DNA of 38,936 nt from a virus (Duplodnaviria > Heunggongvirae > Uroviricota > Caudoviricetes), in IMG/VR virus record IMGVR_UViG_3300029288_007068. One strand, written 5' to 3'. Shown piece after piece: positions 1 through 34,348 of the stretch. Within the stretch, counting starts at the first letter, position 1. The number at the start of each line of letters is the position of its first letter. The notes beneath the pieces were generated by a model. It saw nothing but the letters and a program-made list of their open reading frames with translations. It was not told the DNA's origin and did not search any database. A program made the translations under genes and the position numbers.

Positions 1-3000
1 AAATAGACTTCATCTTGGAACTCTCTTATAACGTTATCATGGAAAAGACATCTTTCTGCGTTTGCAATATACGCTGGAATTGAAGTTCCTGTGGTAGATG
101 CAACGAATTGGTTTCCAAGAATTGAGATATCGTAAGCAGAACCACTACAATAAACACCATAACAATCCGCGGGTGCGGTTTGTTCATAAAAGACGTTGTT
201 ACTAATAATAACTCTTCTTGTTCCTGTATCTAAATCAATATAGTGACAATCATGATTGTTTGCAGATATCATAGTGTTTCCTGAAATGACAGTCCCATAT
301 ATGGTGGCTTTTAAATCAACACCCTGACAATTTGCGTAGGTTGGATTAAAGAAGTTATTAGAGATAATAGCAAAGTCACCTGTCATCGTAACACCAATAA
401 GACCGCCATAAATGTAATTGCCAGTTACCCGCATGTAATCATCAGAACTTTTGGTTGAATAAATTCCATAACAATTCTGATAGAGAATGTTATCTGATAT
501 AACGACGCGAGAAGAATATCTACAATAAACTCCATAATTAAAACGCATAATGGCACTATCATACATTCCTCTTAAGTAGTTGTTACTAATGATTGTACTA
601 TCTGCACAATACGTTGTATCATATCCCCACATGATAATTGCGTTATGGACTATGATATTGTTTTCTGTTATTGTAGATGCTTTTGCATATCCGTATAACG
701 ACACAAAGTTATGCAACCTATCTGTACAAATGATGTGTTCAACCCGCGCGGTTACATTAGTGAAGTTTGCGAACGTTTGTCTTGAAGCGAACATTCTCCC
801 TTTGATTCTAAACTCCGAAACACCACAAGTCAAACCATAGTACGGCGCAGAAGTATCTTCAAAATGGAATATTGATTTGTTTGTATCTGTGAAGTTAAGA
901 GTTGCACCATCGCTTGTAACAAAGATTTCTTTGTTGGTGAAGTTTACTGTGGCTGTTATGAAGATTTCAGTACCCGGGTCTCTGATGAAAATGGTTCCAC
1001 TACCAACAATCCAATTACTTGCCTTTTGGAGAACGTAAGTGAAGTTGGCATCTGTTGCGATAATGGTTCCATTTCTACCACCACGGGCAGTCCAACTGGC
1101 ATCGGCTTTGTATACAGAAACTGTTATAGGGAGAGCGCTATAGTTTGCACCAAGACCAGTGGAAGCGTTCCATCCAGCCCACCACGATATTGATTTGTTC
1201 ATTTGTGTTGTTGTGAGGTTCCAGTTGTGACCGAAGCCGATAGTTCGATTCCACGACACTCCAAATTGACTTAAAGTCCTGTTGGCTTTGACGACTGTGT
1301 TGTTCCAAGTTGTACCAAAGCCGATGGTTCTGTTGGTCTTGAGAGCGGTATTGTTTGCCTTGAGAGATGTGCCATTCCACTTTGCCATGAAGCTGAGTTT
1401 GCGAATTGACGAATTCCAAGAGGCGCGGTCAGCGTCAGTGATGGAACCTGCGCCATCGGAGGCGCCGGCGGACTGGTTGGCGTATATGTGCGCCCAATTG
1501 TTTGCTGACCTTTTAATCATGAGCAGGTTGTTGGCGGAGTCGAACCAAGCGTAGCCGGGTTGGAAGGTTGATTGGTTTACGATGTCGAAGAAGGTGTTGT
1601 AACCAATGTTGTCTCGAACTATTGAACGTGCACCACTTTGTAGTATAGTAGCAGTACAGGTAATAACGTTGTTGTCTTTTATGATATTATAGTTTCCTGT
1701 TGTACTTTCTCGAATTCCATATCCGCTACAATCAGTAATCATGTTATTGGTAACTGTATTGTTGCAACATTTTGGACTTCCACCAATTTGAATTCCATCT
1801 CCGCCACAACTTTTGATTGTATTTCCTAAAACAGTTGTAAAGTTCCAATTGAAGTTAATACCATCGGATGTACATTTTGAAATTGTATTCCCCGTTATAA
1901 TGTTGTACTTGCCACCATGTAGTATTGGAGTTGCATCTCTTATCGAGTAAATTCCATACCGACCACAACCGCTAATATGGTTTCCACTAATTGTACCGTT
2001 GCTTGCCCAAGTTTGGATACCATCGTAATATCCTGTGATTGTGTTATCTGTAATGGTTGCGTTGTAAAGACCACAAAATATTCCATAGTCTTCATCAGTT
2101 CTCGTACAACTTATGTAATTCCCACTGACAAGAACTCCTATATTCTTTTGTTTATCACTCGCCACAGCTGATGTTAAGTGAATTCCATAAGCAGATGTTT
2201 GATTGATTTTGTTATTTAAAATTGAAACTCCTCTTAAATGAGAAGTAGAAGTAGTCAATCTGATTCCATATCCTGTTGTATCATCGCCATCATTTCCAGT
2301 AACGTTATTGATATAACAATTTGAAAGAGTGAGGTAATCACCATACATCTCTACTCCACAACCGTATATCTCATTCAAGATACAATCACTGATTGTATTA
2401 TTATTCCCACCTAAAATGAAACCTGACCCGGTTCTCGCTGATATGTTACCACACCTCTCCGCAAGACAATTACTAACGGTAACTCGTTCTGTCCCCGCGC
2501 CAAGTACTATCGCCCGTGGTTCATTATTGGTTGTATATACATCTTCCTGTCTTGTCATGTTTCTAAAAATACAATTCGTAACTGTAGCTCTTCCACCATT
2601 TTCAAACCATATTCCACTGAACCCATTGAGATACAAACTATCGGAAATCGTAATCCATTTCGACTTCATTCCATAACTTGGTGAACCGGTAAGCGAAATA
2701 GATTCAAAACAAGTTCCGTGGTTCCAATAGTTCGAAAACAGACAATGTGATATTGTTACATTAGTACATGCTCCACCCCAAATTCCACCGGGTAATATAT
2801 TCTCCGAAACACCAGATGGTAAACCATCTCCCCAACACACTCCCGCTTCAGTTACTTTCACATTTTGAATGAAAACATTGTTACAAGCTCCAATGTATAT
2901 TCCAGCTAATATAGTGTTTTCTATCGTAACTCTCTCTATCGTTAAATTGTGGGTTTGTAATAACTGCATTCCATGTCCCTGGTTCCATCCCCAGTTTGAT

Positions 3001-4679
3001 ATTGAAATGTGGTGGGGTTGATGGTATTGGTTTCCGTTGATGGTAAAATCAGTTAATTTTACATTTGAGTTATTACCTGTTGCAACCGTTGTTCCACCAA
3101 CAATTAAACTTCTGTAGAAGTTAACCAATAAAGTTTTATTTGCTCCATCAGCTAAGTATAAAACGGAAGAATTACCAGCGCCTCGAAGCCATGTATTACT
3201 CGGTACTCTAATCGGAATGGTAATTGATATGTTACATGGCGGTAATTCCACCCATCCCATCAAACCAGAACCGGTGTTGTTTAAATCCCAAATTGCATCT
3301 TGGATACCCACGTTAGATACAGGGAACTTGTAACCACGGCTGTTGGTAATGAAAGTAACATTCGGGGCGAAGTTGCCGCCAGTAGTGGCATTCCATCCAG
3401 CCCACCAAGTGGCGGTTTTGTTCATTTGTGTTGTCGTCAAGTTCCAGTTGTGGCTCCATCCCAAAAATCTGTTATCTCCTGTTGACGCATTCCATAATGC
3501 CCAGAAGGTTTTGGAATTGTTAAAACCACTTGTAGTCTGATTCCATTTGTTACCGAAGTCGGAAGTTCGATTACTTTTAAGAACTGTATTATTCCACTCA
3601 CTTCCAAAGTCGATAGTTCGATTTACTTTGAGATACGTATTATTTGACTGAGTGGTGGTTCTGTTCCAACTATGGCTCCACCCTATAAACCTTAAATCTC
3701 CAGTAGACGCATTCCATGTTGCCCAGAAAGTCTTCGAATTATTAAATCCCGCAGTGGTTTGGTTCCACTTGTTACCAAATCCAATCGTTCTGTTAACTTT
3801 TAAAATTGTATTGTTAAGTTGGAGTGTTGTTCTATTCCAATTGTGACTCCACCCTATGAACCGCAAGTCACCTGTAGAGGCATTCCAAGCGGCCCAAAAC
3901 GTTTTAGAATTATTAAATCCAGACGTTGTTTGATTCCATTTGTTACCGAATCCCTGTGTTCGATTGACCTTGATGACTGTATTATTCCAATTTATTCCAA
4001 ATCCAGCGGTGCGATTTATTCTGAGTGCACTGTTATTTGCCTTTAAAGCTGTTCCATTCCATTTGAGCATAAAACTGAGTTTGCGAAGAGATGTGTTCCA
4101 AAGGTCATCGTAAGCGTTGACATGAGTAACTGAATTGTTCCATTTTGCTCTGTCTTCTTCTGTAATGGAACCAGCGCCATCTGCGCCCGCCGATGCGTTG
4201 ACATTTATGGTTGCCCAATTCCCAGCATTGCGCTTTACTTTAAGGACGTTGTTTGCTGAATCGAACCACATGAAACCGGGTTGAGCGCCAGTGACGTTTA
4301 TGGTTGGAGTGGTAGAATAGTTATAACATTGGAAGTTTACGTTGGTTGGAAGCGACCCATGTTGGAGAAGGGATGCAAACGAAACGCCATAAGGAATGTA
4401 GACAACTCCATAAGTGGCGTTGAGACTCCATGCGGCGTACTTGACGTTGTCCTGAGTGGCGTTATAGATATTGCCATTCGACACGTAAATCTTCGACATC
4501 AGTTCGAAGGTAGAACCATTCTTAAAATCATAGTCTCCATCATACATAATGACGCCGGTTGATGAATCGGTCGTATCGGTTATTATTCTTACGGAGTTAG
4601 CATAAGACGTCAACACCAAAGTGATGACTAAAAAGGCTACTCCGAATTTTATGCGTCTTGCCAATATTTTATCTGACAT
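1..4679 (-). CDS. Giant secreted/membrane-anchored spike or adhesin with two right-handed beta-helix (pectate-lyase-like) domains; 3' truncated by window edge
   Basis: Translated by hand: ATG at 4679 (RBS AGGAGAG) gives MSDKILARRIKFGVAFLVITLVLTSYANS... and stays open for 1559 codons to the window edge with no stop. Beta-helix hallmarks include LRGAGNSSVLYLADGANKTLL, KLTDFTINGN and many I-S-x-N/N-x-I repeats. N-x-S/T sequons are dense. Confidence 0.9.
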   Translation of the reverse strand, partial: MSDKILARRIKFGVAFLVITLVLTSYANSVRIITDTTDSSTGVIMYDGDYDFKNGSTFELMSKIYVSNGNIYNATQDNVKYAAWSLNATYGVVYIPYGVSFASLLQHGSLPTNVNFQCYNYSTTPTINVTGAQPGFMWFDSANNVLKVKRNAGNWATINVNASAGADGAGSITEEDRAKWNNSVTHVNAYDDLWNTSLRKLSFMLKWNGTALKANNSALRINRTAGFGINWNNTVIKVNRTQGFGNKWNQTTSGFNNSKTFWAAWNASTGDLRFIGWSHNWNRTTLQLNNTILKVNRTIGFGNKWNQTTAGFNNSKTFWATWNASTGDLRFIGWSHSWNRTTTQSNNTYLKVNRTIDFGSEWNNTVLKSNRTSDFGNKWNQTTSGFNNSKTFWALWNASTGDNRFLGWSHNWNLTTTQMNKTATWWAGWNATTGGNFAPNVTFITNSRGYKFPVSNVGIQDAIWDLNNTGSGLMGWVELPPCNISITIPIRVPSNTWLRGAGNSSVLYLADGANKTLLVNFYRSLIVGGTTVATGNNSNVKLTDFTINGNQYHQPHHISISNWGWNQGHGMQLLQTHNLTIERVTIENTILAGIYIGACNNVFIQNVKVTEAGVCWGDGLPSGVSENILPGGIWGGACTNVTISHCLFSNYWNHGTCFESISLTGSPSYGMKSKWITISDSLYLNGFSGIWFENGGRATVTNCIFRNMTRQEDVYTTNNEPRAIVLGAGTERVTVSNCLAERCGNISARTGSGFILGGNNNTISDCILNEIYGCGVEMYGDYLTLSNCYINNVTGNDGDDTTGYGIRLTTSTSHLRGVSILNNKINQTSAYGIHLTSAVASDKQKNIGVLVSGNYISCTRTDEDYGIFCGLYNATITDNTITGYYDGIQTWASNGTISGNHISGCGRYGIYSIRDATPILHGGKYNIITGNTISKCTSDGINFNWNFTTVLGNTIKSCGGDGIQIGGSPKCCNNTVTNNMITDCSGYGIRESTTGNYNIIKDNNVITCTATILQSGARSIVRDNIGYNTFFDIVNQSTFQPGYAWFDSANNLLMIKRSANNWAHIYANQSAGASDGAGSITDADRASWNSSIRKLSFMAKWNGTSLKANNTALKTNRTIGFGTTWNNTVVKANRTLSQFGVSWNRTIGFGHNWNLTTTQMNKSISWWAGWNASTGLGANYSALPITVSVYKADASWTARGGRNGTIIATDANFTYVLQKASNWIVGSGTIFIRDPGTEIFITATVNFTNKEIFVTSDGATLNFTDTNKSIFHFEDTSAPYYGLTCGVSEFRIKGRMFASRQTFANFTNVTARVEHIICTDRLHNFVSLYGYAKASTITENNIIVHNAIIMWGYDTTYCADSTIISNNYLRGMYDSAIMRFNYGVYCRYSSRVVISDNILYQNCYGIYSTKSSDDYMRVTGNYIYGGLIGVTMTGDFAIISNNFFNPTYANCQGVDLKATIYGTVISGNTMISANNHDCHYIDLDTGTRRVIISNNVFYEQTAPADCYGVYCSGSAYDISILGNQFVASTTGTSIPAYIANAERCLFHDNVIREFQDEVY

Positions 4680-31794: not shown

Positions 31795-32787
31795 TTAAGT
31801 CCACTCGTTATCTGCTGAATCTAAGAAGATTGTAATGTTTTGCTTTGGTTTTGGTTCTTCCTTTAAATCAGCTCCAGCGTAACAAAATTCACTTTCTTTC
31901 TCTTTTACTTTTTTAACTTCTTTTTTCTTTTCTTTAAACTCTGGTTTAGTATTGATGCAATCTAAATGTGCTTTTATGTTATTCGCAAATATGGGGTCAA
32001 GAGGTTTATTTTTATTTCTAAAAAATTCTACATTCCATATTTCATCAAACTTACAAAGCTCTTCCATGAGTCGATAACTTTTTAAATCTACTTGTTCGAT
32101 TGACCTAAAAGCGGTTACCAAAAGTAAATAAGTAAAATCCTCTTTTAACTCCCTCTGTACAAAGAGCTTTAAATTATATGATAAATAATTCATGGGCGAA
32201 ATTTTCTCAATAGGACGCCCTATCAAAAGCCCTTGTAAGGCTGTTCTAACTGAGTTGCTATTATATGCAATCTCATGGATACAATCACATGGAATATTCT
32301 TTTCCTGTAAAATCATTTCAATATCAGAAGTCATAGGTTTTCGAATCTTAACATTTAAACCATTTTTCATAAACTCCTTATCTACATCATCGAGTTTATC
32401 AAAAATATAAATAATGGGATAATTAGAAGTTTTCCATAAGGTATACAATATAGGTCTAATTCTATTCTTTCTGTCTCTGATATCTTGTGCATCATCAAAT
32501 AAAACTATCTTACCACGATTACTATTTATTGATTGGAGATTAATAGACTTCTCCAAATCATTAACATCATCAAAATCGTCAGCTGTAAACCTTAGCAAAT
32601 CAACATCATACGCTTTCGCAAGACATTCCACAAGGAAAGTTTTTCCATTACCACTGGTTCCATGAATGATAGCATATGGTGGACTTCCAGCGCCATTAGT
32701 AAAAAAGTTATCGAGCCACTCATCCAACTGAGCTATCTGCTCTGGAGTCTTTCCATTTCTATTCTTGTAAATACTTGGGAGCGTCAT
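31795..32787 (-). CDS. AAA+ ATPase resembling replication factor C large subunit (clamp loader-like)
   Basis: IIHGTSGNGKTFLVECLAK (Walker A), IVLFDDAQ (Walker B), YPIIYI; acidic/basic C-terminal tail as in RFC-L. Confidence 0.7.
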   Translation of the reverse strand: MTLPSIYKNRNGKTPEQIAQLDEWLDNFFTNGAGSPPYAIIHGTSGNGKTFLVECLAKAYDVDLLRFTADDFDDVNDLEKSINLQSINSNRGKIVLFDDAQDIRDRKNRIRPILYTLWKTSNYPIIYIFDKLDDVDKEFMKNGLNVKIRKPMTSDIEMILQEKNIPCDCIHEIAYNSNSVRTALQGLLIGRPIEKISPMNYLSYNLKLFVQRELKEDFTYLLLVTAFRSIEQVDLKSYRLMEELCKFDEIWNVEFFRNKNKPLDPIFANNIKAHLDCINTKPEFKEKKKEVKKVKEKESEFCYAGADLKEEPKPKQNITIFLDSADNEWT

Positions 32788-32974
32788 CTAATACCCTTTC
32801 TCTTTTTTCTAATTCTTCAATAACCTTTTTAACAATTAAATCCACTTCTTCACTCCTTTTTTTAAGGAAGGTTTTTCCGGCAAAATGAACGCCCAACGTA
32901 ATTCCAATACCAGTAAAAAAAGCATTTACTACTAAAGTTAATCCTATAACTAAATATCCTTGAAAATCTATCAT
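32759..32974 (-). CDS. Small membrane protein (71 aa)
   Basis: One long hydrophobic segment followed by a charged helix; GGAG RBS. Confidence 0.7.
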   Translation of the reverse strand: MIDFQGYLVIGLTLVVNAFFTGIGITLGVHFAGKTFLKKRSEEVDLIVKKVIEELEKRERVLDDAPKYLQE

Positions 32975-33003
32975 TCTCGAAACTCCAATTACAACTTTTT
33001 AAA

Positions 33004-33347
33004 TAGCGTATTTTAGGTTAAAATATAATAGACTATCCTATAAGATGTTATACTATCCTAAATTATCCAAGGTTGTGAGTAGATTGGATGGTGGTCAGTA
33101 ATTGTTTGCACAACTACGATAACCCCACAGCTGTTTGACCAACTATAAGGCTTTTTATACGAGTTACGTCAGTTTATGCTATATTATGTCATTACAGCAT
33201 ATGCTATGCTATATTGTCCCAAATTATTTGAGAAGATAACATATTATTCGATATCCCCACCACTGTTTGACGAGTAGTGGAGCTGGATATCCTGTATTAT
33301 AACATTCTATAATATTACGTACTATGCTGTGTTGGGTTAGTTTATAG
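33004..33347 (-). ncRNA. Putative guide-like RNA array: three degenerate pentamer tracts with interspersed hairpins (VIPR-like)
   Basis: In-phase 5-nt units at 33004-33068 (13), 33165-33254 (18) and 33288-33347 (12). Plus-strand consensus is YAT-NN. A 23-nt element occurs twice (33117-33139, 33249-33271; 20/23 identical). Hairpins need G-U pairs, which works only on the minus strand. No ORF in the region. Confidence 0.7.
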
Positions 33348-33606
33348 AATGCAAATCCGAATCAAATACTACTTTTACTTCTCCTTGTTTTGTTATCAAC
33401 ACTAACTGGTAATGAATACCAACCTTTACAAGAACATTTCTCATACAGAGTTGATTATCTCCTAAATCTTGACCCTCCAACTTATACTCTACACAATGTA
33501 GTCGACCAGATGGCTCTATTCGCCATCGGTCTGGGTATCCATTCTTTTCCAACTGAATACCCAAACTGGCGAAATACTCATCAGCTATATCTTCACTTTC
33601 GGTCAT
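33337..33606 (-). CDS. Hypothetical protein (89 aa) between Cas7-like gene and repeat array
   Basis: ATGA-coupled to the upstream gene; its stop lies inside the first pentamer tract. Confidence 0.7.
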   Translation of the reverse strand: MTESEDIADEYFASLGIQLEKNGYPDRWRIEPSGRLHCVEYKLEGQDLGDNQLCMRNVLVKVGIHYQLVLITKQGEVKVVFDSDLHSIN

Positions 33607-34262
33607 GTATAACTTGATTTATCAATGATTATCTTTGTCATTCTTCGATTTAGAGTCTTCACCGTTGGTAACAACTGAACTATAGACTTAATCTGTCCTT
33701 CATATATCTCAGGATACTTAATAACTATAGTTGTTTTAATCTCTTTAACCGCATCATAATGCTTTCCTATAAAACCACCTCCAATTCCCTTTAGTGGTTG
33801 AGGGGATGTAGCAAAATAATAATTTCCATTATCACGCCAGTTCTTGTCTTCGCTTAAAATAATATATTCTGGTTCAACGTTAACCATTTGAATCATTCTA
33901 TCAACCGTTGATTTATATGGAAATAACGGGTGTTGAATATCCGCAAGATTTTTACCAATAGCTTTTATGGTTCCTCTAACCTTTCTTCCAAGAGGTAAAA
34001 TAGGTCTACCTTTTTCATCAACTTCAAATGTCGCAACGGGAACATTATCTTTTACCGTAACTATCTTATTCGTAAGTCTAACTGGTGGTTCTATTCCTGG
34101 CATCGTACTTTTAGTAATTGTTTGTTTTTCGGCCTTATTTATGGTTTGATGTTCTATCTCTTGGAACCTCTCAACACCATCTCCACCAAAAACATCTTTA
34201 AGAGTTACATTTAAAGTAACTGTTTTCATAGATATTGTTGGTATATCTTTTTCTTGTGTCAT
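33603..34262 (-). CDS. Divergent Cas7/RAMP-like viral protein (219 aa), candidate RNA-guided effector
   Basis: RRM-like layout: VTLNVTLKDVFGG; long insertion; TFEVDEKGRPILPLGRKVRGTIKAIGKNL; VNVEPEYIIL; beta-hairpin PQPLKGIGGGFIGKHYDAV; KTTIVIKY. This matches, from memory, the motif order of phage Cas7-like proteins. The canonical C-terminal G-rich loop is absent. Confidence 0.6.
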   Translation of the reverse strand: MTQEKDIPTISMKTVTLNVTLKDVFGGDGVERFQEIEHQTINKAEKQTITKSTMPGIEPPVRLTNKIVTVKDNVPVATFEVDEKGRPILPLGRKVRGTIKAIGKNLADIQHPLFPYKSTVDRMIQMVNVEPEYIILSEDKNWRDNGNYYFATSPQPLKGIGGGFIGKHYDAVKEIKTTIVIKYPEIYEGQIKSIVQLLPTVKTLNRRMTKIIIDKSSYT

Positions 34263-34348
34263 ATTATTTCATCTCCATAATACTATATGGTATTGGAGTA
34301 TATAAATTTTTTTATATGTTTAATAGTTACTATACTCTTGGAAGTTAA

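Follow-up and report, generated by a model that had tools for sequence, protein, structure and literature searches.

Organization of the locus

The DNA analysed here (hereafter the window) is a viral-looking stretch of 38.9 kb (38,936 nucleotides) in which the genes surrounding the features of interest all lie on the minus strand. These neighbours include genes for a family-B DNA polymerase, a dCTP deaminase and a clamp-loader-like ATPase. With blastn the region matched none of 50,697 phage records, and the polymerase of the window is at most about 24% identical to sequences in phage records. No tRNA or tmRNA genes were found in the window. Within this setting is a gene for a Vipr-like RAMP protein of 219 aa (33603–34262, minus strand), followed by a gene for a VRR-NUC-like nuclease of 89 aa (33337–33606, minus strand) and then by an intergenic gap of 362 nt (32975–33336) that holds an array of hairpins and periodic tracts. 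TRF reported no tandem repeats within this gap. The next gene past the gap is a 71-aa ORF (32759–32974, minus strand) with its ATG at 32974. The RAMP protein is the likely protein partner of the array, and the nuclease gene is the accessory gene of the cassette.

A TTTATATA box after an A-run (34299–34306, minus strand) lies 36 nt upstream of the ATG of the RAMP gene. We infer from the sequence that this box, which has an archaeal-type TATA look, is a candidate promoter for the whole cassette. A GGAG is found 10 nt upstream of the same ATG. A comparable box, ACTTTATATATA, occurs upstream of the RAMP gene at positions 2853–2864 of L017, one of the related loci, which are referred to here by number.

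To place the 219-aa protein we relied on both structure and sequence. An alignment-based AlphaFold2 model had a mean pLDDT of 89, and a Foldseek comparison of this model with the PDB gave Csm3/Cas7 subunits as the best matches (E about 1e-5). Against the ESM Atlas, the model aligned with viral hypothetical proteins of roughly 215 aa at a TM of about 0.6. A search turned up 32 sequence relatives of the protein, and its homologues in metagenomes are few but clear. Sequence searches of the PDB with the protein or with its family profile gave nothing useful, and a profile comparison with hhalign revealed no similarity between this family and the Vipr protein of phage SUSP1. Undetectable sequence similarity is not unusual among RAMPs. 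Because there is no detectable sequence similarity to SUSP1 Vipr, the link to VIPR rests on the modelled fold, the gene neighbourhood and the repeat architecture, and we call the protein Vipr-like. In the closest relatives the neighbours of the RAMP gene are GTP cyclohydrolase I, radical-SAM/Fer4_12 and TGT-like genes (L001:345–941 and 2065–3153; L002:341–982 and 1614–2210). Such a combination of genes is characteristic of 7-deazaguanine DNA modification, and this modification might protect the viral DNA against the nuclease of the cassette.

The 89-aa protein is 73% identical to its homologue in L004 and 29% identical (E 5e-11) to that in L013. The homologues in L013 and L014 exceed the Pfam threshold for VRR_NUC, and the protein of the window itself had no Pfam match. 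In L001/L002 and L003 the ATG of the nuclease gene (ACATGACC in the window) reads ATA (L001:1615–1630; L003:1243–1258) while the full frame is conserved. Because of this, gene callers give only a 53-aa ORF at these loci. The ATA could be an unusual start, a sign of translational coupling or a mark of a decaying gene. A different irregularity is seen at positions 3935–4075 of L017, where an ORF of 136 aa consists of the 89–90-aa nuclease running through the first tract into the first hairpin; this extension is probably an annotation artefact.

Hairpins in the intergenic gap

The initial annotation had proposed three minus-strand hairpins in the gap, and all three are present where they were placed, each folding better than shuffled sequences. 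The first, HP1 (33291–33250, minus strand), has a folding energy of –19.2 kcal/mol (z –4.0 versus shuffles). Its inner stem had been counted as five pairs, which was too few: there are eight (CCACUACU/AGUGGUGG), or 10 in the register of the hairpin family described below, where the core spans 33283–33254 and the loop GUCAAA lies at 33271–33266. The outer stem has seven pairs (GGAUAUC/GAUAUCC); it has no counterpart among the relatives and occurs in the window only. HP1 also includes a perfect palindrome, GGATATCC. The second hairpin, HP2 (33152–33121, minus strand), folds at –17.3 kcal/mol (z –5.7), with a family core at 33151–33122, the loop GUCAAA at 33139–33134 and UUAUCG on the 3′ side. 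The 11 pairs first described for it, including four G-U pairs, are correct, and the full fold has 13. The third, HP3 (33117–33098, minus strand), is weaker (–8.0 kcal/mol, z –3.3) and can be drawn with eight pairs and a GCAA loop or with seven pairs and a UGCAAA loop.

Both strands were folded. The gap as a whole gave a far better fold on the minus strand (z –4.17) than on the plus strand (z –0.21). Individually, the plus-strand folds reached –15.8 kcal/mol for HP1, –2.0 kcal/mol for HP2 (z +0.7) and –3.9 kcal/mol for HP3 (z –0.7).

As the initial annotation had stated, a 23-nt element is repeated directly in the gap (33117–33139 and 33249–33271). The two copies are 132 nt apart and identical at 20 of 23 positions, and a search allowing zero mismatches found no further occurrence in the 38.9-kb window. 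It had also been stated that the variable bases of this element are matched by changes in the partner arm. This holds for two of the three differing bases, those that lie in the 3′ arm; both are answered in the 5′ arm, where G-C becomes A-U and A-U becomes U-G.

A hairpin family in related loci

HP1 and HP2 belong to one family, with equivalent hairpins at seven other metagenomic loci, all on the gene-sense strand. Its members lie downstream of two genes, one for a RAMP-fold protein and one for a small VRR-NUC-like nuclease, and the RAMP proteins of the seven loci are 42–65% identical to that of the window. Scans of viral_contigs and genome_contigs yielded no relatives. One hairpin copy each is found in L001/L002, L003, L004 and L007, and four copies each in L006 (spacing 132–141 nt) and L017 (spacing 113–130 nt), which gives a spacing of 113–141 nt for the four-hairpin arrays. 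L008/L009 has one copy and one truncated copy. The latter (L008:1455–1480, equivalent to L009:1190–1215) has the full 3′ arm and flank, five to six bases of the 5′ arm and the loop GUCAUU; in L008 it folds weakly (z –1.8).

The family stem is 10–13 bp long (about 12 pairs) and closes a six-base loop, GUCAAA, which widens to CGUCAAAC upon loss of the closing pair. It is flanked by A-rich sequence on the 5′ side and usually by (A/U)AUC on the 3′ side. Invariant in the family are a G as the first base of the stem, UCAAA in the loop and AU two bases 3′ of the stem. The stem sequences are almost wholly different between loci, yet pairing is kept. Two further relatives of the RAMP gene, in L020 and L013, are accompanied by tracts without such a hairpin, which indicates that the hairpin is dispensable to the wider family.

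We then measured how far pairing is maintained across the family. In a gapless alignment of 10 copies in the sense orientation, 94.2% of cells were paired and double changes occurred in 10 of the 12 pairs (shifted controls, 37–48%). The covariation score observed for this alignment was reached by none of 500 shuffles. Results from a model-based sense alignment of 15 copies from eight loci were similar, with 95% of cells paired (shifted controls, 40–48%) and double changes in 11 of the 12 pairs, and RNAalifold, run independently, gave the same helix. The idea that these stems are compensatory, first drawn from the window by itself, is thus borne out across 15 hairpins at eight loci.

A covariance model, R1, was built from the 10-copy alignment, with L003 left out of the seed. 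R1 recovered the unseeded L003 hairpin at 31.7 bits (E 4e-6) and scored HP1 at 43.4 bits (E 1e-9) and HP2 at 47.5 bits (E 8e-11). In the 38.9-kb window it found HP1 and HP2 only.

The strand of the RNA was addressed with the same alignment. About a quarter of stem pairs are G-U, and because of this the proportion of paired cells dropped to 73.3% when the 10-copy alignment was reverse-complemented. The G-U content together with this drop in antisense pairing makes the strand assignment well founded: the hairpin RNA has the sense of the RAMP and nuclease genes, that is, of the minus strand, as had been proposed from its co-orientation with a Cas7-like gene. Together, these data show that HP1 and HP2 are real, evolutionarily conserved RNA stem-loops separating guide-like tracts.

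The three hairpins had been presented as being of one kind. This is correct for HP1 and HP2, but HP3 was missed by R1 even when the search was restricted to 411 nt, and no convincing counterpart of it was found in the relatives. A small stem after the hairpin of L004 folds no better than shuffles (z –0.8). HP3 shares with HP2 the inner arm as well as the loop motif CAAAC; a local alignment of the two matches 12 of 14 bases, with a score equalled by 14 of 2000 shuffles. As read from the sequence, the 3′ arm of HP3 is altered yet its pairing is kept. These features suggest that HP3 is probably a degenerate partial copy of the inner stem and loop of HP2 that occurs in the window only, and not a member of the family.

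Pentanucleotide tracts between the hairpins

The stretches between and around the hairpins have a five-base periodicity, with lag-5 and lag-10 identities of 0.39–0.51 versus 0.10–0.40 at other lags. The units consist of a fixed A-U-A, or a looser N-U-R, followed by two variable bases. Tract A (33284–33325, minus strand) runs from the stop codon of the nuclease gene to HP1 and has about eight units (AUA/AYR + NN). Its lag-5 identity is 0.50 versus 0.13–0.40 elsewhere, and its columns are A (1.0), U (0.62) and A (0.75), then two variable positions. Tract B (33153–33217, minus strand) has about 13 units (NUR + NN) and passes into an A-rich linker before HP2; identity is 0.47 at lag 5 and 0.45 at lag 10 versus 0.10–0.32 elsewhere, and one column is 87% U. 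Tract C (32997–33066, minus strand) comes after HP3, has about 14 units (NUA + NN) and ends just before the ATG at 32974. For this tract the lag-5 identity is 0.39 and the lag-10 identity 0.43, with columns of U (0.78) and A (0.82). At its end are an A-rich linker and a weak copy of the 5′ arm of HP2, without a full hairpin. The similarity of this end to the 5′ half of HP2 is marginal, being equalled by 70 of 2000 shuffles, and partial hairpin copies at the ends of last tracts are in general marginal (70 and 46 of 2000 shuffles were as good).

In all eight loci the order is tract then hairpin, and the first tract begins at the stop codon of the nuclease gene. The periodicity extends through the A-rich linker into the stem on its 5′ side, and a distinct conserved motif is found on the 3′ side. 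Between a hairpin and the next periodic run there is a gap of about 6–16 nt. With respect to the hairpin, the five-base register varies on both sides, and it differs across each hairpin, as expected if the tracts are separate units. In L003 a tract and a hairpin are followed by no clear tract. In the window, L001, L004, L007, L008 and L017 a final tract lacks a full hairpin, so that tracts exceed hairpins by one. The hairpin-less last tracts of L008 (1535–1556) and L017 (4525–4546) both end in CUAAAAAUUCAAGAUUUAAC, before a convergent gene; this sequence may signal termination or represent a conserved terminus of the array.

The fixed trinucleotide differs among relatives. It is YYA/CUA in L006, L007, L008 and L017. 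In the distant relative L014 (975–1290) about 55 NNCAA units are followed by a single AAAC-loop hairpin and then by UUAUAG and a U-run. In L020 (1780–1945) the NNCCA units number at least 35, are included in a called ORF and are not accompanied by a hairpin, and L013 (2860–2975) has a YYA-type tract that is upstream, not downstream, of the RAMP gene. Thus, the fixed trinucleotide seems to change along with the protein clade.

For the window itself no RNA run was listed; the one run containing it is a DNA run from a landfill metagenome, which is probably its source. RNA evidence came from one relative. A contig from a groundwater RNA library carries a nuclease gene roughly 93% identical to that of L006 together with 49 nt of periodic tract (L006:700–1020), and DNA carry-over could account for it; we take this contig as a weak hint of co-transcription of the nuclease gene and the tract. 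Past position 1020, the hairpin array of L006 was covered by no RNA contig. The tract of the groundwater contig differs from that of L006. Because a nuclease gene with about 93% identity is here paired with a different tract, close relatives vary in their guide tracts while keeping their genes.

Comparison with VIPR systems

VIPR systems were first described in 2026, with guide RNAs studied in one clade that has a pseudoknot tail and GGY/NN repeats. The VIPR guide RNA, or vrRNA, consists of 9–16 pentanucleotide repeats (GGY + NN), then an invariable structured 3′ tail (10.64898/2026.04.26.720920). In SUSP1 the filament is capped by the 3′ pseudoknot (10.64898/2026.04.26.720927), and the consensus tail has been treated as conferring on the vrRNA its competence for complex formation (10.64898/2026.10.15.759431). 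Non-GGY pentamers (GAC, CAC, WGT, TGH) have also been reported to adjoin Vipr-like folds (10.64898/2026.10.21.760802). We read the SUSP1 array directly as a comparison and found GGYNN runs, each with a tail of roughly 40 nt after it. Each SUSP1 unit is preceded by a repeated spacer box, which is taken here as a putative promoter.

The hairpins of the window are similar to the VIPR type II vrRNA tail (Escherichia phage SUSP1, Pseudomonas fulva prophage; 10.64898/2026.04.26.720920, 10.64898/2026.04.26.720927, 10.64898/2026.10.15.759431) in several respects. Both are structured elements 3′ of a pentanucleotide tract with three fixed and two variable bases, both are viral and adjoin, on the same strand, an accessory gene and a gene for a small single-domain RAMP protein (in the window, as judged from the modelled fold), and both occur once per guide and are supported by covariation. 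There are also clear differences. The type II tail is a pseudoknot, whereas the element found here is a plain hairpin of 10–13 bp with a GUCAAA loop. The fixed trinucleotide is not GGY but NUR in the window and YYA, CAA or CCA in relatives. There is no G requirement, and the tracts fit neither the VIPR repeat consensus GGY/NN (YNNGG) nor its variants NNNGG, YNNNG and NNNNG; none of the non-GGY pentamers listed in 10.64898/2026.10.21.760802 matches those of the window either. Tracts in the relatives are longer, with about 17–22 units between hairpins versus 9–16 in vrRNAs, and those of the window have about 8, 13 and 14. Unlike the SUSP1 units, each with its spacer box, the units here are consecutive and leave no space for promoters of their own. 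The accessory gene, which is VRR-NUC-like, and the RAMP gene, whose product has no sequence similarity to SUSP1 Vipr, also set this cassette apart from that of SUSP1.

The presence of several tracts in one array with structured RNA between them resembles the hammerhead-interspersed and staggered arrays of VIPR types I and V (figs S18–S19 of 10.64898/2026.04.26.720920), and this likeness implies processing of a common precursor. Unlike in those arrays, no hammerhead or other Rfam ribozyme is detectable in the one described here; its separators are simple hairpins without a known self-cleavage motif. A search of the whole window with Rfam at gathering thresholds returned no family, and a relaxed search of 32900–33400 gave only microRNA and sRNA rows at chance level. 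Known ribozyme separators are therefore ruled out as far as Rfam sees. What is new relative to published VIPR is the plain hairpin in place of a pseudoknot, the non-GGY repeats and the hairpin-punctuated array, which is apparently on one transcript.

Possible roles of the hairpins

By analogy with the published systems, we consider it fairly probable that HP1 and HP2 are each the structured 3′ tail of the preceding guide RNA in a divergent VIPR-like cassette. One RNA, starting at a promoter upstream of the RAMP gene, would cover the whole cassette. The periodic tracts would be the equivalent of the guide portion of a VIPR vrRNA, and RAMP protomers would coat them, one per five bases. Each hairpin would form a structured 3′ tail on the preceding tract and mark where the guide ends. 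After a cut in the AU-rich flank it would stop 3′-to-5′ trimming, and it would cap or seed the protein filament in a manner comparable to the 3′ pseudoknot of SUSP1. With only 6–16 nt between a hairpin and the next tract there is no room for separate promoters, and the guides therefore likely come from a shared precursor, with processing or partitioning at the hairpins.

Several observations favour this order of tract and tail. Every locus opens with a tract, right after the stop codon of the nuclease gene, and in L003 and L014 the hairpin comes after a tract and is not itself succeeded by a clear one. On its 5′ side the stem is continuous with the periodic run through the A-rich linker, whereas its 3′ side has a conserved motif of its own. 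Published vrRNAs have the same order. The initial annotation had suggested that the hairpins define individual guide units. This is supported for HP1 and HP2, since each follows a 5-nt tract, relatives have arrays with four hairpins and the design of vrRNAs fits; it does not extend to HP3, which is not a conserved member of the family. The varying register counts against a cap that sets the phase of the filament, for which a constant register would be expected.

We also considered the idea that the hairpins act like CRISPR repeats, with the precursor cut in the hairpin or at its base to leave a 5′ handle, or both 5′ and 3′ handles, on each guide; the RAMP protein, the nuclease or a host enzyme would be the cutter. 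This is the main rival reading, and we regard it as unlikely. As in palindromic CRISPR repeats processed by Cas6, there are repeated hairpins with compensatory stems between loci, variable guides, a fixed strand and a partner with a RAMP fold, and RAMP folds include the Cas6 endoribonucleases, which appeared at low TM in the structure search. The apparent presence of several guides on one transcript, without room for separate promoters in the 6–16 nt after each hairpin, speaks for this explanation. A tract comes after each hairpin, and in six loci the last tract has no full hairpin downstream. Because tracts outnumber hairpins by one in most loci, a 5′-handle model fits the counts equally well. 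In addition, the 3′ arm and flank of HP1 and HP2 (20 of 23 bases) are much better conserved than the 5′ arm, and partial copies in L008 and L001 retain the 3′ half. By contrast, the tract that precedes the first hairpin of every locus, starting at the nuclease stop codon, counts against such a scheme, as do the hairpins of L003 and L014 with no clear tract behind them. The A-rich linker joins the tract to the 5′ side of the stem, with a separate conserved motif on the 3′ side; the structured part of published vrRNAs is at the 3′ end; and the cassette lacks a Cas6-like second RAMP. The array also differs from CRISPR in form. Its inter-hairpin segments are periodic tracts of 83–111 nt, as opposed to contiguous spacers of 30–40 nt, and the window has only two full copies of the hairpin, with flanks that differ between them. 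No cas1, cas2 or cas6 was found among the neighbouring genes. CRISPR arrays have direct repeats of 23–47 nt in alternation with unique spacers about as long, whereas in the window the two full repeats are 132 nt apart and have periodic tracts between them.

A more far-reaching version of this idea is that the hairpins are repeat-like processing signals of a single precursor, recognized and perhaps cut by the RAMP protein or its VRR-NUC-like partner, and that the clade is a living intermediate between VIPR and CRISPR. We hold this to be quite doubtful. In this reading, hairpin repeats would punctuate guides and be read by a RAMP protein, and the invariant UCAAA loop could imitate a single repeat unit (YCA + NN) and so seed the protein filament.

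It is decidedly unlikely that the hairpins are ordinary features of the RAMP–nuclease mRNA, such as 3′ stabilizers, attenuators or terminators, with no role in guides. Their position, immediately after two genes of the same orientation and before the next one, would suit such a function, and like intrinsic terminators they are stable hairpins downstream of genes. A stable hairpin protects the 3′ end of mRNA in many systems. The single hairpin of L014 is, moreover, followed by a U-run. However, no U-tract follows HP1, HP2 or the hairpins of close relatives; the 3′ flanks in the window read UUAUCGUAG and AUAUCGAAU, and a terminator scan of 32500–33800 found none. Up to four copies per array at a spacing of 113–141 nt are more than one terminator needs, and the family has no other copies in the 38.9-kb window. 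Loci with entirely different stems all keep the UCAAA loop and the 3′ AU unchanged, which argues for specific recognition rather than mere stability. The lack of a U-run, the empty scan, the multiple copies and the invariant loop make a terminator in particular unlikely.

Finally, the perfect palindrome in HP1 and the location in an AT-rich intergenic region amid replication genes could suggest that the inverted repeats act as DNA, as a regulator site, a recombination site or a replication element, but this is very improbable because of the G-U content and strand asymmetry: roughly one stem pair in four is G-U and becomes a mismatch in DNA or in the complementary strand, the antisense alignment is 73% paired as against 94% in the sense orientation, HP2 is essentially structureless on the plus strand, and between loci only the pairing, not the sequence of the stem, is conserved.

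Implications for VIPR-like arrays

The locus of the window and its relatives define a divergent VIPR-like clade, with a changed trinucleotide (NUR, YYA, CAA or CCA) and a covarying hairpin tail that carries UCAAA. Because the hairpin fixes the transcribed strand, it provides a prerequisite for the prediction of targets from the variable dinucleotides. The covariance model R1 finds arrays of this type where repeat searches based on GG fail. In non-canonical VIPR arrays the hairpin would serve as a compact RNA handle for the boundaries of guides, and the case is relevant to the origin of the repeat hairpins that punctuate guides in CRISPR arrays.
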